From: Candidatus Saccharimonadales bacterium | GTDB taxonomy: Bacteria > Patescibacteriota > Saccharimonadia > Saccharimonadales > 2-12-FULL-41-12 | NCBI GenBank assembly: GCA_041906505.1 | Contig: JAYRJB010000007.1 | Location: 18,964 to 82,963 of the forward strand | Length of the DNA: 64,000 nt | Direction: 5' to 3' | Part shown: positions 5,841-35,109 of the stretch, piece after piece | Layout of the letters: each line of letters opens with the position of its first letter | How positions within the stretch are numbered: position 1 is the first letter of the stretch | Program-made: the position numbers and the translations under genes | The notes under the pieces: model-generated | What the model saw: only the letters and a program-made list of their open reading frames with translations | The model's database searches: none | What the model was told of the DNA's origin: nothing

Positions 5841-7466
5841 TTAGACGCGGTAGTACTTGCGAGAGAAGACGTAGTAGCCAACACCGCTCGCAAGACTGAC
5901 TGCAACAAAGATTGCGGCGACATCACCAGGACCTGTGTCCGGCAACGAGGTTGTAGTCGTGCCGGGAGGCGTAACGGGGGGAGTTGGAGGGGTTGGTGGC
6001 GTTGTAAAGTTGAGCGCCGCTGCACACTTATCGCTCTCAGCAATCTTTAGCTCACCGTTCACCAAAACCTCAACCTTTACCCGAGCAACATACTGTCCAT
6101 CTTTTGCATAGGTGTGCTCGACCATATTTTGGTCGGTCTTGAATTCTTCTGTGCCATCACCAAAGGTGTAGAAATATCGCTTGATGGTTGCACCATTGGT
6201 TGCCGTAGCGTTTGTAGTGAACTTAACTGTTCTACCTTGCAAAACTTGAGCTTGCAACAGATCACAACTATACGTTGGGTTTACTGGAGGATTACAGTTC
6301 TCTTTAGTAATAACTACGTCGGAGCTATCTTTTACTTCGTTCGGTGTTTGAGTCGATTTTGCATAAGCTACGTTTCTAACCCTTACCTCGCACCCTTCGA
6401 AGTCACCTTTTGTCACAGTATTAAAGATTATGTAACGTATTCCACCCGACGGATAGGTGCCGAGTCCTAGACCGCCCCCAAACAACGGAGCATCATTCTG
6501 GACTTTATCTTGATTTGCATCAATCATTCGAACACTACCAGGCACCAACTTTACGTGAGGAGGTAGTACATCACGAACATTTACTTGAGTCAGTGTTGAA
6601 TTGCTTATGTTCTTGGTGCCAAGGCGCCATTGAACCTCTGTTTCTGGTTTGGTCGATACTTCTTTCTTCCAGCCCTGGTCGCCCTTTACTTTAACTTCTT
6701 TAACAAGTTGTAGGTTAGGAGATTCTTGTGGAATTACCCTAACTTTTATCTGGACAACCGCTTCATACTGGAAACAGCCGGGTAGCTCACCGTTTAGAGC
6801 GTTAAACCCTATTGGTGCTCCTGTTGTTACTACTGAGTCGCTTAGCTTTGCGCCATTAATTGGACCATTGTTATAGATGATCGCAGAACCAGGCACATAT
6901 TCGACTCTAAACTTCTTGTTAGCAGTAAAGTCGACAGTGTCTTCTACCATACTCGCATTGCTTGCGCTTATGTAGCTTCGTGCGCGGAGCACTTGTTCAG
7001 TTGCGGTCGGAAGCGCGATACGCACTTTTGTGTTGTGAGCAATACCCTTGCCGCTCGCATTTGTATTTTGGTTGGCATTGTTATGCACATAGGTTCTAAG
7101 AACGATTTCCTTTGAACCTTCAGTGACCTCTGGTAGCACATTCTTGTAACTCCCCGCAGCGGTTTGGTCGCTTCGTCGAGCATCAAGGAAAGCTCGCTCG
7201 TCCCCGTAGCTTGGTGTATTAACGAAAGAGTTGAATACAGGGCCGTTTAATGAACCACAGCGTCCATTTTGGGTAGCTGGATCATTCGGATCAGTACAAT
7301 TACTATTTGCACTTCCCTTGTTGTAGTCAAATGTTGGTCGATCGGGATAAAACTCGGCATTCACCGCAAGCGGTACTGCGACCGCAAACCCGAGACCCAA
7401 GACAGCAATTGCGAGCTTGGTTTTTCTGCCGAGGGCACTTATCTTATTAGTAAATTTCATTCTCAT
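5841..7466 (-). CDS. Sortase-anchored cell-surface protein (signal peptide, PKD-like domain, Pro/Thr-rich stalk, LPXTG sorting signal)
   Basis: N-terminal signal peptide MRMKFTNKISALGRKTKLAIAVLGLGFAVAVPLAVNA. PKD-like segment YFYTFGDGT...HTY...GQYVARVKV. TPPTPPTPPVTPPGTTTT linker. C-terminal LPDTG, a hydrophobic stretch, then RKYYRV. Confidence 0.8.
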   Translation of the reverse strand: MRMKFTNKISALGRKTKLAIAVLGLGFAVAVPLAVNAEFYPDRPTFDYNKGSANSNCTDPNDPATQNGRCGSLNGPVFNSFVNTPSYGDERAFLDARRSDQTAAGSYKNVLPEVTEGSKEIVLRTYVHNNANQNTNASGKGIAHNTKVRIALPTATEQVLRARSYISASNASMVEDTVDFTANKKFRVEYVPGSAIIYNNGPINGAKLSDSVVTTGAPIGFNALNGELPGCFQYEAVVQIKVRVIPQESPNLQLVKEVKVKGDQGWKKEVSTKPETEVQWRLGTKNISNSTLTQVNVRDVLPPHVKLVPGSVRMIDANQDKVQNDAPLFGGGLGLGTYPSGGIRYIIFNTVTKGDFEGCEVRVRNVAYAKSTQTPNEVKDSSDVVITKENCNPPVNPTYSCDLLQAQVLQGRTVKFTTNATATNGATIKRYFYTFGDGTEEFKTDQNMVEHTYAKDGQYVARVKVEVLVNGELKIAESDKCAAALNFTTPPTPPTPPVTPPGTTTTSLPDTGPGDVAAIFVAVSLASGVGYYVFSRKYYRV

Positions 7467-7487: not shown

Positions 7488-9056
7488 TTATCCTTGGGGA
7501 TTCGGGTCAGTAGTTGGTGCGGGGGTACCAGATCCGTTTGCTGGTTCAGCTGGAGCGGGTGTTGGCGTGCCTTCTTGGGCAGGACCTGTTGGGGCAGGTT
7601 GATTAGGTAGTGGTGGTGGGGTTGGTTCTTGTGCAGGTGTAGCGGGCTTTGATTCACCAGGAACATAGCCCGATTGATCGGGAGTTTGACCAGCAGGACC
7701 CTTCCCTGCCTTATCTGGAGTACCCTTGTCTTGGTCTGCAGGAACGTTCTTATTGCCAGGCAATCGTCCATCGTCTTTTTTGGGTGAAACTCTCACAACT
7801 CTTTCACCTCCAGTTTGGTTGGTGGTTGTAGTCTTGCTTGGTTTTGGCTTATTCACATTTCCGCCACCGGTTGTATTGGTAGTAGAAGTTCTTTGGCCTT
7901 GGCTCGTGCTAACAGTGGTTCCAACGAACTCACGTACACTTACGGGGTTTCCTTGAACATCATTCCAACAAGTTCCAATGGATTGATCACTTCCCCCACC
8001 AACCTTAAATAGTGCTTTCTTGCCATTTTCTAGGGTCATTTCCAAAAACAATACATTGCTAAAGTTCTGTCGAACACTAAATACGTCATGTTCGTTTCGT
8101 TGCGCCGCATTCTCGGAATTAGGAATAGACATTTTTAGAAGACGATAGTTCGTGTCTTCGTCAGCCATTTTGTTGAGTATCCAAGCACGAGCCTCGCCTA
8201 CGCTGGTTGGAAGCTCAGAAGTGAGCGGACGATCGTGAAGGTTGTTATAAGTTGTTACCACATTTCCATCGTCACTGTGTCGGCTAAGAGCTACCATCTC
8301 TATAGCGGTTTGAACTGTGATTGCTTCTTTATTGACAGCAGCGTGTGCTTGCTGATTATAAGCATGGGAAACACTTATTTCTGGTGAGTCGGCAATTTTT
8401 CTGACGTTTGCCTTCGCATCAGCAACCGAACCGCTCTTGATGAGCTTTGCAGCCTCGTTCAAGCTTGCACCTCGAAGTGCGTTATCACTTGGGAAGGCAG
8501 TTTTAGCGTGGGCGCTGGTATTGGACTTATGAGGTTTTTTGTTAACGTCCTTGAAGGATGCAAGGTCGAAACTAGCTTTGGGCGCTTTGTCATTAACGCC
8601 ATCTTTTGCCGCCACATAGATGCCGCCGCCAACAACAGCAGTAACCGCCATGGCGCCGATCGCTGCAAACTTTGCAGCTTTTCGCTTGAACCAATTCTCT
8701 TTCTTGTGTGCTGGAGAGTTATCTGCTGCACCTGTAGTGCTTACGTCAGCGTCTGCAGAGGCTTGTGCTCTCGACCCTTGAGACTGTTCGTTGTCTGCAA
8801 GACCAGCGATAACTGTCGTGTGTCCAAGCTGTTCTACGAGCGTGTCGAGCCGACTTCCCATAGCTCCCAAAGCACTTAGACGTTCTGCCATTTCAGCAAG
8901 CTCTTGCCTAACTTCATTCTGCAATTCGGCGAGTTTATCGCCTAGGGCTTGATTTTGAAGTTTTAGCTGTTCATTTTCTATGCGAAGAGCTGCAACTTGC
9001 TGCTCTGGCGCTTGCGGATTCGTATTGACTTCGTGTGACTGTGACATATATGTCAT
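7488..9056 (-). CDS. Hypothetical bitopic membrane protein: cytoplasmic coiled-coil, one TM helix, extracytoplasmic domain, Pro-rich C-terminal tail
   Basis: N-terminal heptad-rich region (LKLQNQALGDKLAELQNEVRQELAEMAERL). TM helix FAAIGAMAVTAVVGGGIYVAA. C-terminal PAPT/PTPP low complexity. Stop lies 21 nt upstream of the LPXTG gene start, so probably co-transcribed. Confidence 0.6.
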   Translation of the reverse strand: MTYMSQSHEVNTNPQAPEQQVAALRIENEQLKLQNQALGDKLAELQNEVRQELAEMAERLSALGAMGSRLDTLVEQLGHTTVIAGLADNEQSQGSRAQASADADVSTTGAADNSPAHKKENWFKRKAAKFAAIGAMAVTAVVGGGIYVAAKDGVNDKAPKASFDLASFKDVNKKPHKSNTSAHAKTAFPSDNALRGASLNEAAKLIKSGSVADAKANVRKIADSPEISVSHAYNQQAHAAVNKEAITVQTAIEMVALSRHSDDGNVVTTYNNLHDRPLTSELPTSVGEARAWILNKMADEDTNYRLLKMSIPNSENAAQRNEHDVFSVRQNFSNVLFLEMTLENGKKALFKVGGGSDQSIGTCWNDVQGNPVSVREFVGTTVSTSQGQRTSTTNTTGGGNVNKPKPSKTTTTNQTGGERVVRVSPKKDDGRLPGNKNVPADQDKGTPDKAGKGPAGQTPDQSGYVPGESKPATPAQEPTPPPLPNQPAPTGPAQEGTPTPAPAEPANGSGTPAPTTDPNPQG

Positions 9057-9267
9057 TCCTCCCCTAGTAACTCCACTAGGATTCTTACTTTAAGTTATTC
9101 CCCACACCTCTCGTGCTTATCGGCACAAAACGTGTTATGACATACAATATATCACAAGAATTCGTAATTGTCAATATTGTTAGATAATTATATTCATAAG
9201 CAAGTTCACCTCTGTCAAAGCAACGACTTCTAGTGCAATTGACTGGACTTTTGCTGTCAGTTACTGC

Positions 9268-10878
9268 TTACGGACTGGGTTTCGAAGAGGGCTTTGGAAG
9301 CAACTTTGTAATTTCGAAACAGAAGCCAAAAGTACTACCATTGCCTTCTTGGCTTTCAAACAAGATGGTGCCACCTTGAGCTACCACAACTTTCTTTGCC
9401 ATAAATAGGCCGAGGCCGCTGCCATCTGGGCGAGCCTTCCGTGCGTTTGACGCACGATAAAACTTGGTAAACATATGGGCTTGCTCGTTCTTGGGCACAC
9501 CAAAACCACTGTCCTTAACGGTAAAATAAAGATGTTTCTTATCTTGCTTCAGCTCAACCGCAATTTTACCGCCACTGGGCGTATAGTAAATTGCATTGTC
9601 AATATAGTTCATTATCACTTGGCGTATTTTTGTTTCGTCAAGCATGAGCGTTGGAAAATCCTTAGGTTTGGTGTAGGTTATCTGGAGCTTCTTGTTCGAA
9701 AAAGCCTCTTTTAGTTGGTCAATCTCACTCTGAATAACATCTGGCAAAAAGGACTCAACTGGATTAATTACAAACTTACCGGTTTTCAGTCTCGACACAT
9801 TCAAAAGATCAGCAATTAGATACACCATCCGCTGCGAGCTAGAAAACGCTTGCCCCAAGAGCTGACGTTGGAGAGGTGTTATTTTGCCCGCATCGCCCTC
9901 TAAAACCATGCTCACATAGCCCTTTACCGAAGTAAGGGGTGTTCGCAGCTGATGGCTGGCCATGCTAATAAATTCGTCCTTGGTGTCATCCATTTCCTTT
10001 AGTTTTTGGTTGGTACGACGAAGTTTTGCAGTGGCCTCTTCAATGCGCTCCTGGAGAAGTACGTTAAATTGCTGAATCTCTTCGAAACGCAGCGAGTTTT
10101 GGATCGCAATAAGAAGTTCGTCGGCAATAATTTCAATAATTCTTATGTCGTTGACGCTGTACGCTTTACCGCTTTTCTTTGGACCCAAAATAAGATACGC
10201 CACCGCCTCTTTTGTTTGGTAATACTCTTCTACAAGTGGGCGGACAATTGCTAGGTTATTCTCGACCAGCACTTTTTTTAGCTCACCTTCTGAATTATCA
10301 ATTTCGGCGGTAATCGCCATAATCTGGCCACGTTTTAGCAGCTCTTGTCGTAAATCGTCAAGATCATGAGCGCTAATTGTAACTTTCGATTCATTTCTTA
10401 TTTTTAGCTTGCCTAATTCCAGATCCTTGATCGCAATCAAACAAAACTGAGACTTTATGTTCTCCTCGATAACGCTTGCGACGCGGCGAAGCAGAATACC
10501 AACCTCGATGTTGGAGGCGATTGCGTGGTTCAGTTCATTTAAGAAGCCTTGTGGATCATAGCCGTCCCGGAAAAACAAACGATTGGTAATTTTATCGAAC
10601 GCCTGCTTGAAAAGTGGTGCCGTGGCGGCAACTAACAGCGCAGCTACGAACGGAATAATGTCATTTGGGCTCGAGGTATCGCTAGAAAATATTTGGGTGG
10701 ATCCAAAAATAATCCCCACATACAGTGCTCCAAGGATAGTAATTAGCAGCGTATATGCCAAAGATCTCGCAGCGATTAGGCGAACGTCAAAAAACCGCCT
10801 GCCTACGCCCCTATATAACAGCATGCTGGCGACAACAATAGCCAGAACCAGAATTAAGGCAGTTATGCTTATCCACAT
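9268..10878 (-). CDS. Two-component sensor histidine kinase (membrane-bound)
   Basis: Two N-terminal TM helices. H-box SHQLRTPLTSVKGY. G-boxes GSGLGL and GGTILFESQEGNGSTFGF. Confidence 0.85.
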   Translation of the reverse strand: MWISITALILVLAIVVASMLLYRGVGRRFFDVRLIAARSLAYTLLITILGALYVGIIFGSTQIFSSDTSSPNDIIPFVAALLVAATAPLFKQAFDKITNRLFFRDGYDPQGFLNELNHAIASNIEVGILLRRVASVIEENIKSQFCLIAIKDLELGKLKIRNESKVTISAHDLDDLRQELLKRGQIMAITAEIDNSEGELKKVLVENNLAIVRPLVEEYYQTKEAVAYLILGPKKSGKAYSVNDIRIIEIIADELLIAIQNSLRFEEIQQFNVLLQERIEEATAKLRRTNQKLKEMDDTKDEFISMASHQLRTPLTSVKGYVSMVLEGDAGKITPLQRQLLGQAFSSSQRMVYLIADLLNVSRLKTGKFVINPVESFLPDVIQSEIDQLKEAFSNKKLQITYTKPKDFPTLMLDETKIRQVIMNYIDNAIYYTPSGGKIAVELKQDKKHLYFTVKDSGFGVPKNEQAHMFTKFYRASNARKARPDGSGLGLFMAKKVVVAQGGTILFESQEGNGSTFGFCFEITKLLPKPSSKPSP

Positions 10879-27194: not shown

Positions 27195-27752
27195 CTACTT
27201 TATGTCTTGTTCGGGAGATTTAAGAAGTTTTTGACGCTTGCTGTCGTCGTGTTGCTTGAGAGTGTTTTGCAAAACTTCTATAACTTTTTCGGCGTGCTCT
27301 CGACTCATCCCAACCCGACTTACGCCAACCGGCTGATGGCCGCTAGCAGGCGTCTGCATAAACTGTAATGTCACGCCGTGGTCATTCACAGTCGCGTGCA
27401 TTGTATCGGTATATACGACCTTATTATCGACAGGTAGATACATAACAACTTGCTTCATCAGCATGTCTTCGATACCACTCGACAAAGCTTCTCCCGCTTG
27501 ATCCAGCTGACTTTCGGCTAGATCACGAAGGTCTTGGGCTTGGTCCTCTGTAAGCAAAAAATGGCTAATAAGCATGTCAAGTAGTTCCTTGGCAGGGAGT
27601 GTCGTTCCAGATTCAATTGCGAGTAGTGTTGATTCGTCGATTTCGAGTGTCCCTGAAACATCCTGGACTGTTTGTTGCCATTGTTCTCGGAGGAATTTTA
27701 GGCGGGCACCTAAAGCCTGGTACGGCTCATGATTTTGCTCACTCATGTACAT
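27195..27752 (-). CDS. XRE-family helix-turn-helix protein with uncharacterised C-terminal domain
   Basis: Start trimmed to MYMSEQ (the upstream extension overlaps divergent murB). HTH is LGARLKFLREQWQQTVQDVSGTLEIDESTLLAIESG. Confidence 0.55.
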   Translation of the reverse strand: MYMSEQNHEPYQALGARLKFLREQWQQTVQDVSGTLEIDESTLLAIESGTTLPAKELLDMLISHFLLTEDQAQDLRDLAESQLDQAGEALSSGIEDMLMKQVVMYLPVDNKVVYTDTMHATVNDHGVTLQFMQTPASGHQPVGVSRVGMSREHAEKVIEVLQNTLKQHDDSKRQKLLKSPEQDIK

Positions 27753-27799
27753 ATATACTACGCCCCTTTTTTGACCAATACAAGCTATAATGAGCAAGT

Positions 27800-28828
27800 A
27801 TGTTGCCAGAAATAAAACAAAATATCCCCCTAAAAGACTACTCCACGATGCGCCTGGGAGGGCCAGCACGTTTCTTGTGCGAAATTACTCAAACCGACCA
27901 GATCCCGGCTGTTATTGAATGGGCAAACGAACAGAATGTTCCTTTTGTGATGATTGGGGGTGGGAGTAATATTGTCTGGTCCGACCAAGGGTATCCTGGC
28001 GTAGTAATGGTCAACAAGTTGATGGGTTATGAGGTTCAAGATCAAGGCGAGGCGCAATATTTAATTGTTGGTGCTGGTGAAAACTGGGATTCTGTTGTTA
28101 TGCGAAGCGTCGAAGCAGGACTATCGGGACTGGAGCAACTTTCGCTGATTCCAGGTTCTGCTGGAGCTACCCCAATACAAAATGTTGGGGCTTATGGCAG
28201 AGAGGTTGCCGATGTTTTGGTGTGTGTCCAGGTGTATGATATTGCTCAAAAAAAGGTAATTGTGCTTCCCAAATCGGAATGTGGTTTTGGCTATCGTACC
28301 AGCCGTTTTAAAGCCACTGATAAGGGAAAGTTTTTAGTAACCTCTATTACTTTTGCCCTTTCAACCGCGCCTCCTTCGCCACCTTTTTACAGCAGCGTTG
28401 AGGACTACCTAAAAACCAATGGTATTACCGAGATGTCGTCAGCCACAATTCGCGAAGCCGTGATGGCCATTCGAAACGCAAAGCTCCCCAACCCTGCGGT
28501 GGTAGCAAACTGCGGATCGTTCTTCCATAACCCCATCATTCCAATGCTTGAACTCGAAAGAATAAAAAATGAAAACCCCAATATTGTGTATTGGCCTATA
28601 AGCGACGATGAGGCAAAGGTTTCTGCTGGGTGGCTTCTTGAGCAACTTGGCCTAAAAGGTTACCACGAACCAAACACAGGTATGGCTATTTGGGACAAGC
28701 AAGCTTTAGTGTTCGTTAACGAAAAAGCCACAAAAACAGCGCAACTTCTTGCCTTTCGCGATGCGATAGTTCAATCCGTTAGAGACAAATACGGTATTAG
28801 CTTGGTTCAAGAGCCAGAACTCATTTAG
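27800..28828 (+). CDS. murB: UDP-N-acetylenolpyruvoylglucosamine reductase
   Basis: FAD-binding DYSTMRLGGPARF...MIGGGSNIV. 342 aa. Confidence 0.85.
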   Translation: MLPEIKQNIPLKDYSTMRLGGPARFLCEITQTDQIPAVIEWANEQNVPFVMIGGGSNIVWSDQGYPGVVMVNKLMGYEVQDQGEAQYLIVGAGENWDSVVMRSVEAGLSGLEQLSLIPGSAGATPIQNVGAYGREVADVLVCVQVYDIAQKKVIVLPKSECGFGYRTSRFKATDKGKFLVTSITFALSTAPPSPPFYSSVEDYLKTNGITEMSSATIREAVMAIRNAKLPNPAVVANCGSFFHNPIIPMLELERIKNENPNIVYWPISDDEAKVSAGWLLEQLGLKGYHEPNTGMAIWDKQALVFVNEKATKTAQLLAFRDAIVQSVRDKYGISLVQEPELI

Positions 28829-28878: not shown

Positions 28879-30174
28879 TTATTTTTTATCGCTGGGAAGC
28901 GGAAAGTCTTTGGTAAATTCGACGACCTCTTTTTTTAGAGTATCTAGACTTTTTTCATCGTTTCGGGCGTCAATCGCACGCTTCATCCAATCGGCCACCA
29001 ATGTCATATGCTCCTCTTCCATGCCACGAGACGTAATAGCCGGAGTACCAAGGCGAATGCCACTTGGCCGAAACGGCGGTAATGTGTCATTCGGTATGGC
29101 GTTCTTGTTCAATGTAAGCCCAATACGATCCAGAGCCTTCTCGGCAACATCGCCGTCAATACCAAATGAAGTATGGACATCAACCAACAGCAAATGATTG
29201 TCGGTGCCGTTGGTAATGAGCTTGAAACCTCTGCTCATTAGTTCTTCGGCAAGCTTTTGTGCGTTCTTGATTATCTGCTGTGCGTATACCTTAAACTCGG
29301 GCTTTTGAGCCTCACCAAATGCAACAGCTTTTGCAGCGACCGTATGCATGTGCGGACCACCTTGAAACCCTGGAAACACTTCACGATCTATAAGCGTCGG
29401 TAGGTTTTTTACCGTTTTTTCGGGTGCTTTTAGCGGGTTGCCTACCACTCCCTTACTTAAAATCAAACCACCCCGCGGGCCGCGTAGGGTCTTATGCGTT
29501 GTGCTGGTGATAATGTGAAACCCAAAATCAAACGGATTGGGAAGTGCCTTTCCAGCAATTAATCCAGCAATATGTGCCATATCCGCCATTAACACTGCCC
29601 CAACCTCATTCCCGATTTCTGCAAACTTTGCATAATCCAGACTTCGAGGGTACCCACTAAAGCCAGCAAGCAAGATCTTTGGTTTTTCTTTTAGGGCCAC
29701 TTGACGCATTTCTTCGTAGTCAATCTCGCCGGTTTCTACGTCCTTAATTCCGTAGCGCACAAAGTTATAAAGTTTGGCAGAGCTGGTGACTGGGTGACCA
29801 TGCGTAAGATGGCCGCCGTGATCAAGCTTCATACCCATTACCGTATCTCCCGGCTCAAGCCAGGCTTGATAAACAGCAATATTGGCAGGAGCACCAGAAT
29901 GAGCCTGGACGTTGGCGTGATCGGCGGCAAATAAGTCCTTTGCCCTATCAATGGCAAGCTGTTCGACTTGATCGGTATTTTCTTGGCCGCCGTAATATCT
30001 TTTTCCTGGATAGCCCTCGGAGTATTTGTTGGTAAACACACTTCCCATTGCCGTGAGCACGTCACGACTTACATAGTTCTCGCTTGGAATTAGTTCAAGA
30101 CCCTCACGCTGTCTCTGTTCTTCCGCGCGAATAAGGTCCGCAATTTGTGTGTCGTTCATGGTTGTTGCCTCCAA
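28879..30174 (-). CDS. glyA: Serine hydroxymethyltransferase
   Basis: LELIPSENYVS, PLP-lysine region TTHKTLRGPRGG. 431 aa. Confidence 0.93.
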   Translation of the reverse strand: MEATTMNDTQIADLIRAEEQRQREGLELIPSENYVSRDVLTAMGSVFTNKYSEGYPGKRYYGGQENTDQVEQLAIDRAKDLFAADHANVQAHSGAPANIAVYQAWLEPGDTVMGMKLDHGGHLTHGHPVTSSAKLYNFVRYGIKDVETGEIDYEEMRQVALKEKPKILLAGFSGYPRSLDYAKFAEIGNEVGAVLMADMAHIAGLIAGKALPNPFDFGFHIITSTTHKTLRGPRGGLILSKGVVGNPLKAPEKTVKNLPTLIDREVFPGFQGGPHMHTVAAKAVAFGEAQKPEFKVYAQQIIKNAQKLAEELMSRGFKLITNGTDNHLLLVDVHTSFGIDGDVAEKALDRIGLTLNKNAIPNDTLPPFRPSGIRLGTPAITSRGMEEEHMTLVADWMKRAIDARNDEKSLDTLKKEVVEFTKDFPLPSDKK

Positions 30175-30350
30175 ATTATTCCGCTTGATGTATGCCGACG
30201 AACACCCGCAAAGGTTATTGCTTTATTGTAACCGAACAAAAACCCAAAGGCCATCGCCGAACCCCCAATATTACACAGTGGCATTTTCTCTCAATATCAA
30301 GGATTATTTTTTGTTGCCAGATTTGTCATATGTGGTATATTTATGGTGTT

Positions 30351-31871
30351 ATGTTGAATACCAACGAAAAGATCGGTCAACTAATTTATCAAATTAGGCA
30401 AGAACGAGGACTTACCCAAGCCGAGTTTGCGCGGCGACTTGGAACATCTCAGAGTGCAGTCAATCGGATCGAAAAGGGACGACAAAACTTGAGCCTCGAA
30501 ACCCTTGGGCGGATAAGTGACGTGCTGAACAAACAGATTATCTCTCTTGGTGGTGGCGCCGTAAACCTAAGAATTGAGGGCGGACACGAACTTTCTGGCA
30601 GCATTGAAACCAAAGTATCGAAGAACGCTGCTGTTTGCCTCTTGTTTGCGGCGCTTTTGAATAAAGGCACAACTAGGCTCAAGCGCATGCCACGAATCGA
30701 AGAAGTTAATCGCCTTATCGAAGTACTTACTAGCATCGGGGTAAAAGTCCGATGGATGGCTGGCAATGATTTGGAGATCCGACCACCAGAAAAATTAGAT
30801 CTTTCCAGCATTGACGCCCAGGCCGCCCGTAAAACCCGGAGCGTAATAATGATGTTTGGGCCGCTAATTCATCTGTTTAATGACTTCAAGATACCTTATG
30901 CGGGTGGCTGCAAGCTCGGAACCCGCACCGTACAACCCCATTTGTTTGCCCTCGAAGAGTTTGGGGTCAACATTGTTGCAAAAACCGGCTACTACCACGT
31001 AAGTGTAGAGCACAAAACGCCATCCCACGTAGTCCTCTACGAGTCTGGAGACACCACCACAGAAAATGTGTTGATGGCTACCGCGAGACACGACAAAGAA
31101 GTCACAATCAAAATGGCTAGCGCCAACTACATGGTCCAAGATCTCTGTTACTTCCTAAAGAAGCTCGGGGTTAAGATCGAAGGAATTGGTACCAGCACAC
31201 TCAAAGTGACCGGCGTAAAACACATCAAAAAGAACGTGACTTACTATCCAACCGAAGATCCGATCGAATCAATGACATTTATTGCTGCAGCGGTCACAAC
31301 AAATTCTTCGATCACCGTCAAGCGCGCCCCGCTAGACTTCGTTGAGCTTGAGCTGCTAAAACTCAAAAAAATGGGGCTAAAAGTTGATATGAGCAAGTCC
31401 TACAAAGCCGCGAATGGGCACGCAGACTTGGTCGACATCACCGTTCATAAACACAACGGCAAGCTGACCGCGCTTGACGAAAAAATTTACGCCCGCCCCT
31501 ACCCAGGCCTTAACATTGATAACTTGCCCTATTTTGTACCGATCGCCGCCGTTGCAAAGGGACGAACACTTATTCATGACTGGGTGTACGAAGAGCGTGC
31601 TATTTATTATACCGAGCTGAGAAAGCTCGGGGTCAACGTTACCCTTGCTGATCCTCATAGAGCTTTCATTGACGGACCAACTCGTTGGCGAGTCGCCGAC
31701 ATTGTGTGCCCTCCCGCACTTCGGCCGGCCGTACTCTTACTTATTGGTATGTTAGCCGCAAATGGTACTTCAATGCTGAGAAATGTCTACTCGATAAATC
31801 GTGGCTATGAATATCTTGCGGAGCGCTTAAATGATCTGGGTGCCAAAATTACCATCTTGCATGACATATAG
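30351..31871 (+). CDS. murA: XRE-HTH domain fused in-frame to UDP-N-acetylglucosamine 1-carboxyvinyltransferase
   Basis: N-terminal IGQLIYQIRQERGLTQAEFARRLGTSQSAVNRIEKGRQNLSLETLGRISDVL (Cro/C1 HTH). It runs directly, with no stop and no internal Met, into the MurA N-terminus VSKNAAVCLLFAALL. Catalytic Cys in AGGCKLGTRTV. C-terminal SINRGYEYLAERL. Confidence 0.8.
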   Translation: MLNTNEKIGQLIYQIRQERGLTQAEFARRLGTSQSAVNRIEKGRQNLSLETLGRISDVLNKQIISLGGGAVNLRIEGGHELSGSIETKVSKNAAVCLLFAALLNKGTTRLKRMPRIEEVNRLIEVLTSIGVKVRWMAGNDLEIRPPEKLDLSSIDAQAARKTRSVIMMFGPLIHLFNDFKIPYAGGCKLGTRTVQPHLFALEEFGVNIVAKTGYYHVSVEHKTPSHVVLYESGDTTTENVLMATARHDKEVTIKMASANYMVQDLCYFLKKLGVKIEGIGTSTLKVTGVKHIKKNVTYYPTEDPIESMTFIAAAVTTNSSITVKRAPLDFVELELLKLKKMGLKVDMSKSYKAANGHADLVDITVHKHNGKLTALDEKIYARPYPGLNIDNLPYFVPIAAVAKGRTLIHDWVYEERAIYYTELRKLGVNVTLADPHRAFIDGPTRWRVADIVCPPALRPAVLLLIGMLAANGTSMLRNVYSINRGYEYLAERLNDLGAKITILHDI

Positions 31872-31910: not shown

Positions 31911-31985
31911 GCGGGTGTCGTATAATGGCTAATATACCTGCCTTCCAAGCAAGTGATGCGAGTTCGATTCTCGCCACCCGCACCA
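31911..31985 (+). tRNA. tRNA-Gly (anticodon UCC)
   Basis: GCGGGTG...CACCCGC-A-CCA. Anticodon loop CTTCCAA. Closely resembles the canonical bacterial tRNA-Gly(UCC). Confidence 0.85.
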
Positions 31986-32011: not shown

Positions 32012-32088
32012 GCCCCGGTAGCTCAGTGGATTAGAGCAATGGGCTTCTATCCCACAGGTCGGGGGTTCGAATCCCTCCCGGGGTGCCA
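32012..32088 (+). tRNA. tRNA-Arg (anticodon UCU)
   Basis: GCCCCGG-TA-GCTCAGTGGATTAGAGC, anticodon loop CTTCTAT, T-arm GGGGG-TTCGAAT-CCCTC, CCGGGGT-G-CCA. Confidence 0.8.
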
Positions 32089-32120: not shown

Positions 32121-32218
32121 AAATTGATATCCGAGAGACGGATTCACCCCTCCGACCAAAAAGGTCAAGGCGAGAAATGCCAGCGGGCTTTAGAAGCTTG
32201 TCAGTCGACAGCTGTGGC

Positions 32219-33379
32219 TTAGTCTTCGTCGACGATGTTCGCCATGGTTCTGGCAGTTGCCTTCCACCACGGTTCGAAGTCACGGTAGCCTATCCAGTCC
32301 GCTGCCAGCCGCAGCGTCCACCCCAGCCACCCGTAAAACCGCAACCGACCCCAGACAACCGCAGCCCATCTTTCTCCCACAGGAATGATATACACCGGTT
32401 TTCTGTCTCTGTACGGTATTTTTGGTTGGTCATGATATTCGCGAACAAGATTGTTCGCCACACTCACGGCATCATGAAGCGCAGTTTGGGCCATTCCAGA
32501 GTAAGTCGTCTCGGCATTATCGCCAATTACATAAATATCATCACCCGCGGAGAGATACTCATCAACAACCACTTTTTTTCGAGGACTAAGTTCAAAGTCG
32601 TTGTGGTCAAAAAAGGGATTGTTGGCAATGCCGGCAGTCCAAATAACCGTTTTACTCTCGATCTTTGTATCATTCACCAACAATACATCTTTAGTTTCGC
32701 CTTGAACTGTGGCGTTTGTCATCACCTTTATGCCGAGTCGGCGAAGTCGACGCGTAATAGCCCGAGACGTCGATTTCGGTAGAGCCGGTAAAATTTGTTT
32801 CTTTGCCTCAATTAGCTCGACTTTTACCGGCTTTCTGCCAATGTAGTATTTTTTCATTAACTTATGGATGTAGTCTGGCAACACACTGGAAAACTCAATT
32901 CCCGTCGGCCCCGCGCCGACAACAATGTAGTTAAGATCGGGCGTATGAGCATTGATGAGCTGTTCTTGGAGATGAGCCTTGAGAGCCTCGGCCTTTTCAA
33001 CCGATTTCACTGAATAGCTGTTATCGGCAAGACCGTTTATTCCAAAATAATTTGTCACCGAACCCAACGACAGCACTAGCACATCGTAGGTGAGCTTTTT
33101 GCCGCCTTTTATGCTAAGTGTTTTTTGAGTCCTATCTACTTTTGTTGCCTCGCCCTTGATCATCTGTATTGGCTTGTTTGCAATCAGCTCGCCAATTGGA
33201 ATGCTCGACACCACTCTACTGCCACCTGCCGCGGTATGGTACAGCGAGGGGTAGTAATTAAATATCGTATCCGAAGCAACGAGTGTAATTAAGAAATCGT
33301 GGTGTTTTGCCAGTTCAAGGGCCGTCTTTAGTCCACCAAAGCCCCCACCGACTATCACCACCCTTGTTTGTCTTTTCAT
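32219..33379 (-). CDS. ndh: Type II NADH:quinone oxidoreductase (NDH-2)
   Basis: Two dinucleotide-binding folds: VVIVGGGFGGLKTA and YIVVGAGPTGIEFS. Confidence 0.85.
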   Translation of the reverse strand: MKRQTRVVIVGGGFGGLKTALELAKHHDFLITLVASDTIFNYYPSLYHTAAGGSRVVSSIPIGELIANKPIQMIKGEATKVDRTQKTLSIKGGKKLTYDVLVLSLGSVTNYFGINGLADNSYSVKSVEKAEALKAHLQEQLINAHTPDLNYIVVGAGPTGIEFSSVLPDYIHKLMKKYYIGRKPVKVELIEAKKQILPALPKSTSRAITRRLRRLGIKVMTNATVQGETKDVLLVNDTKIESKTVIWTAGIANNPFFDHNDFELSPRKKVVVDEYLSAGDDIYVIGDNAETTYSGMAQTALHDAVSVANNLVREYHDQPKIPYRDRKPVYIIPVGERWAAVVWGRLRFYGWLGWTLRLAADWIGYRDFEPWWKATARTMANIVDED

Positions 33380-33405: not shown

Positions 33406-35109
33406 ATGTTACAAAGCATAAGTGTAGTTTATGCTATGCTAGCTCAAGATAATATGCAGGATTTTATCCAAAAACTACAGACAACTGGCTTTAAGGGCGA
33501 TATCAAAACAGATCAAGACACGCTTGAATTTTATAGCCATGATGCATCATTGTTTGAGGTAAAGCCTAAGCTGGTGGTTGCCCCAAAGGACTCGGAAGAC
33601 GTTCAGTTGCTTACAAGGTTGGTTGCAGAGCAAAAAAATCAATCTCCAAACCTTAGCCTCACCGCCCGCAGCGGTGGCACCTGCATGTCAGGTGGATCAA
33701 TCAATGAATCAATTATTGTGGACTTTAATGCGCATATGCACGCTGTTGGGGAAGTTACCGAAAACTCGGCACGCGTACAACCCGGCATGTTTTATCGTGA
33801 CTTTGAAAAGAAAACACTCGAACACGGTGCAATTATGCCCTCTTATCCAGCAAGTCGAGAGCTCTGTACTGTTGGGGGCATGGTCGCAAATAATGCCGGC
33901 GGTGAAAAATCGCTTGAATTTGGCAAAACCGAAAAATTTGTCCAAGAACTACGGATTGTCTTGCGCGATGGAAATGAGTACATTGTAAAGCCGCTTAGTA
34001 AGGGCGAGCTGGACGTAAAAATGAGACAAGACAACTTAGAGGGGCAGCTCTATAGGGATACGTTTGATTTGGTAGAAAAGAATTATGAGTCACTGCAACG
34101 CGCCCGCCCGAGGGTTTCTAAGGATTCGACTGGGTATCACTTATGGAATGTCTGGGATCCAAAAAAAGAAATATTTGATCTCACGCAAGTCATTGTTGGT
34201 TCTCAAGGGACCTTGGGGCTGGTGACTGATATCAAATTTCGATTGGTAAAAAACCCGGCTCATTCTGGCACATTAGTTTTGTTCTTGCGCGATTTGCGCG
34301 ATCTTGGCGAGCTGATTAACGATGTCATGACGCATAAGCCTGCAACTTTCGAAGGCTTCGACAACTATACGCTAATGTTGAGCTTTAAGCTGTTCTTCTA
34401 TTTCAGAAAAACTCTCGGTTGGATTGGGATGATGAAATTAGGCATTCAGCTTATACCAGACGCTCTCAAGTTATTTAGGGGCATACCGAAGATGGTATTG
34501 CTTGTGCAGTTTACAGGTAACACGCCACAAGATGTCGCAGACAAAGTTCATGCCTTACGGCGCTCGCTCACAAAATACGACCACGAAACGCTGTTTGAAG
34601 AAGACGAAACCGAAATAAAGGAAAAGAAGTTCTGGATCATGCGTCACGAAAGTTTTAATTTGCTGCGTAAAAAAGTAAAAGATAAGCACACCGCGCCTTA
34701 TATCGATGACTTAGTTGTAAATCCAGAACACTTACCAAACTTTTTGCCCGAACTGCGAGCCATAATAAATAAGTATGGGCTTTTGGCAACAATTGCGGGG
34801 CATATGGGCGATGGCAATTTTCATGTGATACCGCTCATGAAGCTCGAGAATAAAGATGAGCGGGCAAAATTGCGCCCATCAATGAAAGAAGTGAACGAAT
34901 TAGTGCTTAAATACGGCGGATCGCTGTCGGGCGAACATAATGATGGTATGAGTAGAGGACCTTGGCTTGAGCAAATGTACGGCCCAGAAATACTAGAGCT
35001 CTTCAAAAAAACTAAACATATTTTTGATCCCGACAATCTTTTTAACCCCCACAAAAAGACTGACGCAGACTGGGATTATTCATTCTCGCATATTCGCGAC
35101 CACTTCTGA
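33406..35109 (+). CDS. FAD-linked oxidase (GlcD/D-lactate dehydrogenase-like, FAD_binding_4 plus C-terminal domain)
   Basis: SGGTCMSGGS FAD-binding motif and HMGDGNFH in the C-terminal domain. Start uncertain (Met 33406 vs 33436). Confidence 0.7.
   Translation: MLQSISVVYAMLAQDNMQDFIQKLQTTGFKGDIKTDQDTLEFYSHDASLFEVKPKLVVAPKDSEDVQLLTRLVAEQKNQSPNLSLTARSGGTCMSGGSINESIIVDFNAHMHAVGEVTENSARVQPGMFYRDFEKKTLEHGAIMPSYPASRELCTVGGMVANNAGGEKSLEFGKTEKFVQELRIVLRDGNEYIVKPLSKGELDVKMRQDNLEGQLYRDTFDLVEKNYESLQRARPRVSKDSTGYHLWNVWDPKKEIFDLTQVIVGSQGTLGLVTDIKFRLVKNPAHSGTLVLFLRDLRDLGELINDVMTHKPATFEGFDNYTLMLSFKLFFYFRKTLGWIGMMKLGIQLIPDALKLFRGIPKMVLLVQFTGNTPQDVADKVHALRRSLTKYDHETLFEEDETEIKEKKFWIMRHESFNLLRKKVKDKHTAPYIDDLVVNPEHLPNFLPELRAIINKYGLLATIAGHMGDGNFHVIPLMKLENKDERAKLRPSMKEVNELVLKYGGSLSGEHNDGMSRGPWLEQMYGPEILELFKKTKHIFDPDNLFNPHKKTDADWDYSFSHIRDHF

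Follow-up and report, generated by a model that had tools for sequence, protein, structure and literature searches.

Here, we describe a gene on contig JAYRJB010000007.1 of a Candidatus Saccharimonadales bacterium that joins a DNA-binding domain to MurA, the first committed enzyme of peptidoglycan synthesis, and that is preceded by a conserved palindrome, the predicted operator of its own product. The gene lies in a stretch of 64,000 nucleotides that was analysed as a whole (hereafter the window, in whose numbering coordinates are given). Its open reading frame (ORF) runs on the forward strand from the ATG at 30351 to a stop codon at 31869-31871, the only stop that it contains, and encodes 506 amino acids (aa); the extent of the gene (30351..31871) agrees with the Pfam and NCBIfam matches and with full-length homologues. 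The product starts with a helix-turn-helix (HTH) domain of the XRE/Cro-C1 type (aa 1-62; 30351..30536, forward strand), delimited by its HTH_3 match, the helices of an AlphaFold2 model and conservation, and with the recognition helix TSQSAVNRIE at aa 32-41 (30444-30473, forward strand). A short glycine-rich linker of 8-10 aa, ISLGGGAVNL (aa 63-72; 30537..30566, forward strand), leads into a complete MurA (UDP-GlcNAc enolpyruvyl transferase) domain (aa 73-506; 30567..31868, forward strand), recognised by phmmer, Foldseek and its key residues.

No in-frame ATG, GTG or TTG occurs between aa 59 and 97, so that a separate MurA cannot start internally at the domain boundary. A 559-aa version that would start at an upstream in-frame ATG (30192) was rejected; we take 30351 as the real start because the homologues all begin with MxxTNEKIG (about 506 aa) and because the predicted promoter, together with the operator, lies inside the extension. 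An earlier note on this DNA had described an HTH that runs without a stop or an internal methionine into a complete MurA with an active-site cysteine and a C-terminal RGYE motif. The ORF, the Pfam matches and the start-codon scan agree with this description, and both motifs are present (Cys187; RGYE at aa 484-487).

The N-terminal part of the protein carries a five-helix domain of the HTH_3 type by both Pfam and structure prediction. HTH_3 matches aa 12-62 (E = 1.2e-16; 60.9 bits against a cut-off of 23), and an AlphaFold2 model of the fusion made with 79 diverse homologues (predicted local distance difference test, pLDDT, 89.1; predicted template modelling score, pTM, 0.87) places the helices at residues 2-18, 23-30, 34-41, 49-59 and 64-67, with pLDDT below 50 at residues 65-68 of the linker. 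The HTH alone finds its best match in the PDB in Legionella HipB (8ezt; phmmer E = 2.6e-7), and a set of 79 diverse fusions shows no variation at T32, Q34, S35, R39 and E41.

Fold and catalytic residues place the remainder of the protein in the MurA family, where it belongs to a divergent clade of Patescibacteria type, as judged by sequence comparison. Pfam EPSP_synthase aligns with aa 76-493 over profile positions 2-417 of 417 (E = 5e-45), and the score for the NCBIfam MurA subfamily PRK09369 is above its cut-off (324 bits; cut-off 297), while that for PRK12830 is below (217.6 bits; cut-off 552). In a phmmer search of the PDB, aa 71-504 aligned end to end with solved MurA structures (best 5ujs, E = 5.6e-55), much closer than the UMP-specific homologue NikO (E = 2.4e-18). 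The catalytic Cys187 (codon 30909-30911) lies within YAGGCKLGTR, and equivalents of K22, R91, C115, R120, D305 and R397 of Escherichia coli MurA are all present. The seven key residues in the numbering of the window protein (K91, R163, C187, R192, D390, R458 and R484) are intact in every tabulated fusion outside one degenerate clade, which is discussed below. Foldseek superimposed the modelled MurA body on MurA structures with target-normalised template modelling (TM) scores of 0.90-0.93. The alignment, the modelled fold, the intact key residues and the nearby murB make the domain look catalytically active.

Unbroken fusions of this kind are widespread among relatives. The top 120 of 8000 scored protein matches are 496-522 aa long (nearly all 506), 79-99 % identical to the window protein and contain both domains; those with a named source come from Saccharimonadales and Patescibacteria. 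When one genome per GTDB species was scanned, at least 307 stretches proved to encode a relative. The best 80 of these 307 loci span the query from residue 1-6 to residue 504-506 and are nearly all labelled Saccharibacteria or unclassified, and one contig from a metagenome-assembled genome (CAZNIK010000001.1) is 99 % identical to the window. Column conservation in 121 Saccharibacteria sequences reaches 92 % in the HTH and 87 % in MurA, a sign that the fusion is under strong purifying selection, and the linker sequence is conserved among Saccharibacteria sequences as well. A search seeded with a distant member added HTH-MurA fusions of about 500-515 aa in Liptonbacteria, Paceibacterota, Taylorbacteria, Colwellbacteria, Doudnabacteria and others. 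The earlier note had suggested looking for the same fusion in related genomes, and it is found in many Saccharibacteria, in other Patescibacteria and in Actinobacteria.

In a scan of metagenomes with search patterns drawn from the MurA domain only, the best 80 loci were examined. The HTH is present in 69 of them and absent in 11, one of which is cut off by the end of its contig. The 11 relatives without HTH fall within the same MurA clade as the fusions. For about 3 kb to each side they have no gene of the fusion's HTH family, which means that the domain was lost and not split off. A fused MurA, called unusual in the earlier note, is thus unusual for bacteria at large but the rule in this Patescibacteria MurA clade. 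Two loci carry labels from other lineages: L027 (DATHJH010000018.1) and L012 (JAHWKM010000003.1), labelled Candidatus Limnocylindria (Chloroflexota) and Candidatus Parcubacteria, encode fusion proteins that are 77-83 % identical to that of the window, in L012 within the same gene order. Both are probably mis-binned or mis-labelled Saccharibacteria contigs.

The fusion gene is preceded by a predicted sigma-70-type promoter (30314..30341, forward strand), which was found by promoter scan and has the same layout in related loci. It consists of a -35 box TTGCCA (30314-30319), a 16-nt spacer and a TG-extended -10 box TATATT (30336-30341), with 10 of 12 matches, and related loci have a TTG-type -35 and a TATAAT-type -10 at the equivalent place. 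The -10 box ends 9 nt 5' of the ATG. With this predicted promoter the mRNA would have little or no leader, and no Shine-Dalgarno-like sequence was seen by eye upstream of the ATG.

Lining up the 60 nt 5' of the start codon from the window and 78 Saccharibacteria loci revealed a palindrome, ATAYC-N6-GRTAT, that ends 11-14 nt (15 nt in one locus) before the ATG, in intergenic sequence that has diverged around it. At the fusion promoter it fills the spacer between -35 and -10 and overlaps the -10 box, and its half-sites lie 11 bp apart centre to centre, which fits a dimer on one face of the DNA. The match is perfect in 54 of these promoters, extends to 9 of 10 half-site positions in 18 and to 8 of 10 in seven, including the copy in the window, TTGTCatatgtGGTAT (30323-30338). 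The palindrome is highly specific to this place: 653 kb of Saccharibacteria loci contain 56 perfect copies, 54 of them at the fusion promoter, whereas shuffled sequences contain 3.2 +/- 1.6.

A wider regulon in the window received no support from a one-mismatch scan, which gave nine matches against 4.5 expected, a number that 6 of 100 shuffles reach. The sole perfect copy elsewhere in the window, ATACCgaagatGGTAT (34483-34498), lies inside an ORF for a 567-aa FAD-linked oxidase-like protein (33406..35109); it is also present in the 99 % identical locus L001 and was taken as a chance match. A second copy of the operator occurs within the HTH coding sequence of two sub-clades (L123, L130, L134, L138, L141, L145, L153, L157, L159 and L165), at +142 from the start codon and 170 bp 3' of the promoter site, where it spans the codons AAT ATC AGC CTT GAT ATG (N-I-S-L-D-M). 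It is partly present in L081 as well (at 6140) and absent from the gene in the window. This intragenic copy, which might act in looping as an auxiliary operator, co-varies with the upstream operator of the same clade (ATCTC...GAGAT in L159 and L165).

Several comparisons connect the palindrome with the HTH of the fusion. Relatives that are only 33-43 % identical carry ATATC-N6-GATAT or a near copy directly upstream. For the extended family of operator patterns, the metagenomic set of 80 loci yielded 65 perfect matches against 5.6 +/- 2.6 expected. An operator stands at the start of 47 of the 69 metagenomic fusion genes, and six more have one 122-361 nt upstream, but none of the 11 genes without HTH has one near its start. 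Furthermore, the half-sites vary with the recognition helix. TSQSA helices pair with ATAT/ATAC (179 of 192 half-sites), helices that have threonine in second place (TTQS/STQS) with ATAG...CTAT (19 of 26 half-sites, as compared to 2 of 192 for TSQSA), and TSQSS[IV]P helices with ATCT...AGAT (7 of 12). The direction of this co-variation is as predicted for a cognate protein-DNA pair. Based on enrichment, exclusivity to one promoter and co-variation, we infer that the palindrome is the cognate site of the fusion's HTH, and the comparison thereby places a palindromic site upstream of the protein's own gene, as is usual in the XRE family. The earlier note had proposed that the fusion couples cell-wall synthesis to transcription or to nucleoid localisation. 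The conserved palindrome in its own promoter, the co-occurrence of palindrome and HTH and the co-variation with the recognition helix support the former, whereas non-specific nucleoid localisation is not indicated, given a site that belongs specifically to a single promoter.

The fusion is also found in cultured Actinobacteria, namely in Nonomuraea, many Streptomyces, Streptacidiphilus, Actinacidiphila, Peterkaempfera, Marinactinospora and Thermoactinospora. These proteins are 509 aa long, 86-96 % identical to the Nonomuraea query across orders and 58 % identical to the window protein. In the loci of Nonomuraea (L081, 6001-7530), Streptomyces iranensis (L167 and L168, both 8001-9530) and Marinactinospora (L169, 8001-9530), ATCTCatatgtGAGAT or ATCTCatatttGAGAT is located 11-13 nt 5' of the ATG. 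The operator has here the form ATCTC-N6-GAGAT and is embedded in otherwise unrelated, GC-rich intergenic DNA (about 70 % GC). The genomic contexts of the gene differ among the three genera, and a phage-type integrase adjoins the Nonomuraea copy. In a rough neighbour-joining tree the actinobacterial fusions nest in the Patescibacteria MurA clade beside Saccharibacteria, which suggests a transfer from Patescibacteria epibionts to their actinobacterial hosts and subsequent spread among actinomycetes.

A small, long-branched clade (P0127, P0130, P0143-P0145, P0175, P0189 and P0286-P0290) retains the HTH with its invariant recognition helix, the MurA fold and the operator, and is without the Cys loop, the equivalents of R91 and R120 and usually that of R397. 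Four genomic contexts of this degenerate clade were examined (genes at L082 3498-5003, L083 5001-6503, L085 5001-6530 and L086 1474-2952). In three of the four, the gene is divergent from a canonical stand-alone murA with the K, C, R and D motifs, downstream of which comes murB or a Mur ligase gene. At its stop, the degenerate fusion gene in turn overlaps with the beginning of Mur-ligase or ddl genes. The operator is situated in the short promoter region of the degenerate gene, which is shared directly with murA in two loci (60 and 84 bp) and measures 25 bp in the third, where one small gene lies between. Because this clade keeps HTH and operator, a regulatory role appears to be selected independently of catalysis. 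The comparison shows a module of HTH and MurA fold that is apparently retained for regulation even when another protein does the catalysis, and it shows peptidoglycan-precursor genes as the predicted targets. Proteins of this clade, although annotated as MurA in databases, are probably dedicated regulators.

Taken together, we consider it likely that the window protein is both the MurA of its cell and the repressor of its own promoter. Comparative analysis establishes the fusion, its intact active site, and the position, specificity and co-variation of the predicted operator. In the proposed mechanism, two HTHs, probably as a dimer, would occupy the half-sites of the 16-bp palindrome on one face of the DNA. 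The bound fusion would occlude the spacer and the -10 box and block RNA polymerase. Thereby it would repress, rather than activate, its own production and keep the level of MurA fixed. Such a mode of action would be in accordance with XRE regulators, which are typically autoregulatory dimers on palindromes upstream of their own ORF (PMC12565409).

Several observations weigh against this interpretation. All support for binding, repression and enzyme activity is comparative, and canonical MurA is described as a monomer. The score for the murA equivalog TIGR01072 (306.8 bits) is below the cut-off of 392.7. The 5' half of the operator in the window is degenerate (TTGTC in place of ATAYC), so that this copy is among the weakest (8 of 10). 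The 3' half-site overlaps the extended -10 (TGnTATAAT), which would be kept as a promoter element anyway, and independent evidence for an operator therefore comes solely from the 5' half and the co-variation. The classes of helices and half-sites are phylogenetically clustered and represent few independent events. The scan for a second murA and for further operator copies covered the 64-kb window, in which it revealed a single MurA-like gene and no convincing additional site.

A different division of labour, in which the MurA domain is a mere sensor or scaffold of a transcription factor and another MurA elsewhere in the genome is the catalyst, is improbable. It is realised in the degenerate clade, with a stand-alone murA adjacent in three of four contexts, and it would agree with the sub-threshold TIGR01072 score. 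However, the seven key residues are conserved in every fusion of the catalytic type that was examined, and the loss of catalytic residues coincides with an adjacent stand-alone murA in three of the four contexts of the degenerate clade. No second MurA-like gene is present in the 64-kb window, and no other murA turned up in the flanks of about 4 kb of the 80 Saccharibacteria loci, although no search of these flanks was aimed at MurA-like genes. At roughly 1 Mb, genomes of Saccharibacteria are small, and few paralogues are expected in them.

There is likewise only a slim chance that the fusion binds the palindrome but activates the promoter, for instance by MerR-type remodelling of the spacer. 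Such activators do bind between -35 and -10, where the palindrome is situated; MerR-type activation, however, needs an over-long spacer of 19 nt, while the fusion promoter combines a 16-nt spacer with good hexamers. The overlap with the -10 box is a classic repressor position, and XRE autoregulators are mostly repressors.

Quite unlikely, too, is that the HTH serves to tether MurA to DNA or the nucleoid or to contact other proteins, and that the palindrome is a promoter element or the site of another regulator. The coincidence of the 3' half-site with the extended -10 speaks for this alternative, as does the degenerate 5' half in the window, where binding by the fusion is predicted from comparison. 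Yet the 5' half, which has no known role in the promoter, is conserved where the proteins are 33-99 % identical to that of the window. The site is also absent at promoters of murA genes without an HTH and at neighbouring promoters. It accompanied the gene into Actinobacteria, and it varies together with the recognition helix of the fusion.

The location of an inverted repeat near the start codon could also suggest an RNA or DNA hairpin, such as a 5' structure for translation or stability, but this has next to no probability given that the repeat overlaps the -10 box and would mostly not be transcribed, that its stem would consist of five mostly A-T pairs, that folding of 30310-30365 is unexceptional (z = -1.31; 22 of 200 shuffles as good) and leaves the half-sites unpaired, and that mixed half-sites (ATACC...GATAT), which would be disfavoured in a hairpin, are common. 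An assembly or sequencing artefact, i.e., a missed stop or a frameshift that merges an XRE gene with murA, is practically excluded because the same unbroken architecture and length recur in hundreds of independent assemblies, which stem from several sources and phyla; the linker sequence is conserved and the relatives without HTH are not split genes, and neither the sequencing error nor the consistently split orthologues that the earlier note had feared were encountered.

Proceeding from autorepression by a catalytically active fusion, it is conceivable, though rather doubtful, that the MurA fold is a metabolite sensor as well as an enzyme and that its ligand state (UDP-GlcNAc, phosphoenolpyruvate or UDP-MurNAc; open or closed) tunes DNA binding in a manner analogous to BirA. 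Ligand occupancy would then alter dimerisation or the geometry of the HTHs and thus set the occupancy of the promoter. The conjecture builds on canonical MurA, which undergoes a transition between open and closed forms and forms closed, 'dormant' complexes with bound UDP-MurNAc, a feedback ligand; 3swd, 3su9 and 8d84, which are among the Foldseek matches, serve as examples. If this proposal held, the fusion would constitute a one-protein feedback loop for the supply of peptidoglycan precursors in Patescibacteria, the catalytically dead paralogues would be precursor-sensing transcription factors for murA-murB and mur-ligase operons, and the actinobacterial copies would be a horizontally acquired form of the same circuit.

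Proteins that combine catalysis with gene regulation are known as trigger enzymes, and the fusion carries a catalytic and a DNA-binding domain in one polypeptide. Regulation of its own pathway is indicated, from comparison, by the predicted operator at its own promoter and by the association of the degenerate clade with murA, Mur-ligase and ddl genes. The closest analogue is BirA, the biotin-protein ligase of E. coli and repressor of the bio operon, which likewise unites an N-terminal DNA-binding domain with a complete enzyme, binds a palindromic operator overlapping a promoter and regulates its own pathway. BirA differs in that its DNA-binding domain is a winged HTH and that it represses the bio operon and not its own gene, whereas the fusion has an XRE-type HTH and its own promoter as predicted target. 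Furthermore, biotinyl-5'-AMP as corepressor and ligand-driven dimerisation are proven for BirA, while ligand control of the fusion is conjecture. The trigger enzymes PutA and NadR are also metabolic enzymes with an N-terminal DNA-binding module that regulates their own pathway. They are, however, other enzymes with other switches (redox state and membrane binding in PutA), PutA has a ribbon-helix-helix fold, and none acts in peptidoglycan synthesis.

In comparison to canonical stand-alone MurA (E. coli and E. cloacae; PDB 1uae and 3swd), the fusion shares the fold (TM about 0.9), the Cys loop and the equivalents of K22, R91, R120, D305 and R397, but is only about 25-30 % identical, has an insertion at approximately aa 345-380 and carries the additional 72 aa of HTH and linker. 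With XRE autoregulators (HipB, DdrO, ImmR and SinR-like proteins) it has in common the five-helix Cro/C1 HTH and a palindrome upstream of its own ORF. The C-terminal parts of these regulators are small dimerisation, sensor or protease-related domains, in contrast to the full biosynthetic enzyme of the fusion. An N-terminal XRE HTH on a biosynthetic enzyme also occurs in the fusion with shikimate kinase (PRK08154), which gave a weak match to the HTH in NCBIfam. PRK08154 contains a different enzyme and is unrelated to HTH-MurA beyond the HTH; its function is, to our knowledge, poorly characterised.

MurA is a point of control in other bacteria as well. In Firmicutes, it is subject to proteolysis by ClpCP with ReoM, ReoY and MurZ under PrkA, and in Pseudomonas it is coupled to LpxC. 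In these systems and in the proposed circuit the same control point, the level or activity of the first committed enzyme of peptidoglycan synthesis, is held in check; the former act by proteolysis or protein contact and involve several partners, whereas the fusion would achieve this with a single polypeptide at the level of transcription. We know of no DNA-binding MurA that controls MurA levels. A search of the full-text literature returned no description of an HTH-MurA fusion or its operator; one study discusses murA gene order without mention of the fusion (PMC8871954). In databases, the fusion proteins are named MurA or 'helix-turn-helix domain-containing protein' only. The HTH-MurA architecture and its predicted operator thus appear new relative to the literature, while trigger enzymes and XRE autoregulation are of a known kind.

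How the flux into peptidoglycan is set at MurA is an active question, to which the proposed circuit, if true, would add a third answer that is far simpler. Patescibacteria are mostly uncultured and have few recognisable regulators, and the circuit would also be among the few that their genomes reveal directly. Since cultured Streptomyces, Nonomuraea and relatives have this protein and operator, the hypothesis is testable by ordinary genetics and biochemistry. The dead paralogues beside canonical murA-murB provide a natural example of an enzyme that becomes the sensor domain of a transcription factor. For annotation, our findings imply that thousands of entries named 'UDP-N-acetylglucosamine 1-carboxyvinyltransferase' or 'helix-turn-helix domain-containing protein' are of the putatively bifunctional type, and that a minority of them are probably not enzymes.

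The gene for the next enzyme of the pathway, murB (27800..28828, forward strand), is located 1.5 kb upstream of the fusion and was identified by Pfam MurB_C and FAD_binding_4 and by synteny. It is divergent from a gene on the reverse strand (27195..27752) for a separate XRE-HTH protein of 185 aa (XRE-185; HTH_19 30.9 bits, cut-off 30.2), the C-terminal half of which has a weak DUF3467 match. The divergent upstream neighbour of the fusion gene is glyA (28879..30159, reverse strand), encoding serine hydroxymethyltransferase, which was recognised from its ORF translation and is conserved in 76 loci. The order XRE-185 (reverse), murB (forward), glyA (reverse) and HTH-murA (forward) is conserved in 58 related loci. 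The domains and the conserved pairing bear out the divergent arrangement of murB and an XRE-HTH gene that the earlier note had pointed out. Its further suggestion, that associations of HTH and mur genes recur here, also stands insofar as both are real and conserved; they give no evidence for one circuit, in that the 47-bp intergenic region between XRE-185 and murB (27753-27799) contains no ATAYC-N6-GRTAT. Because the murB-XRE pair shows no operator of the fusion, the two associations are probably separate.

The intergenic region of XRE-185 and murB has only conserved -35-like and -10-like elements, near both start codons. The -10-like boxes of relatives lie within about 10 nt of the start codons of XRE-185 and murB, as at the fusion gene, and this lineage may often make mRNAs that are leaderless or almost so. 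On the other side of the fusion gene, genes for tRNA-Gly(TCC) (31911-31985) and tRNA-Arg(TCT) (32012-32088) follow, starting 40 nt past its stop codon. Further downstream, a 201-aa ORF on the forward strand (32177-32782) is antisense to a gene for a 386-aa NADH-dehydrogenase-like protein (32219..33379, reverse strand); its translation is of low complexity and rich in proline and arginine, and this ORF is likely spurious.

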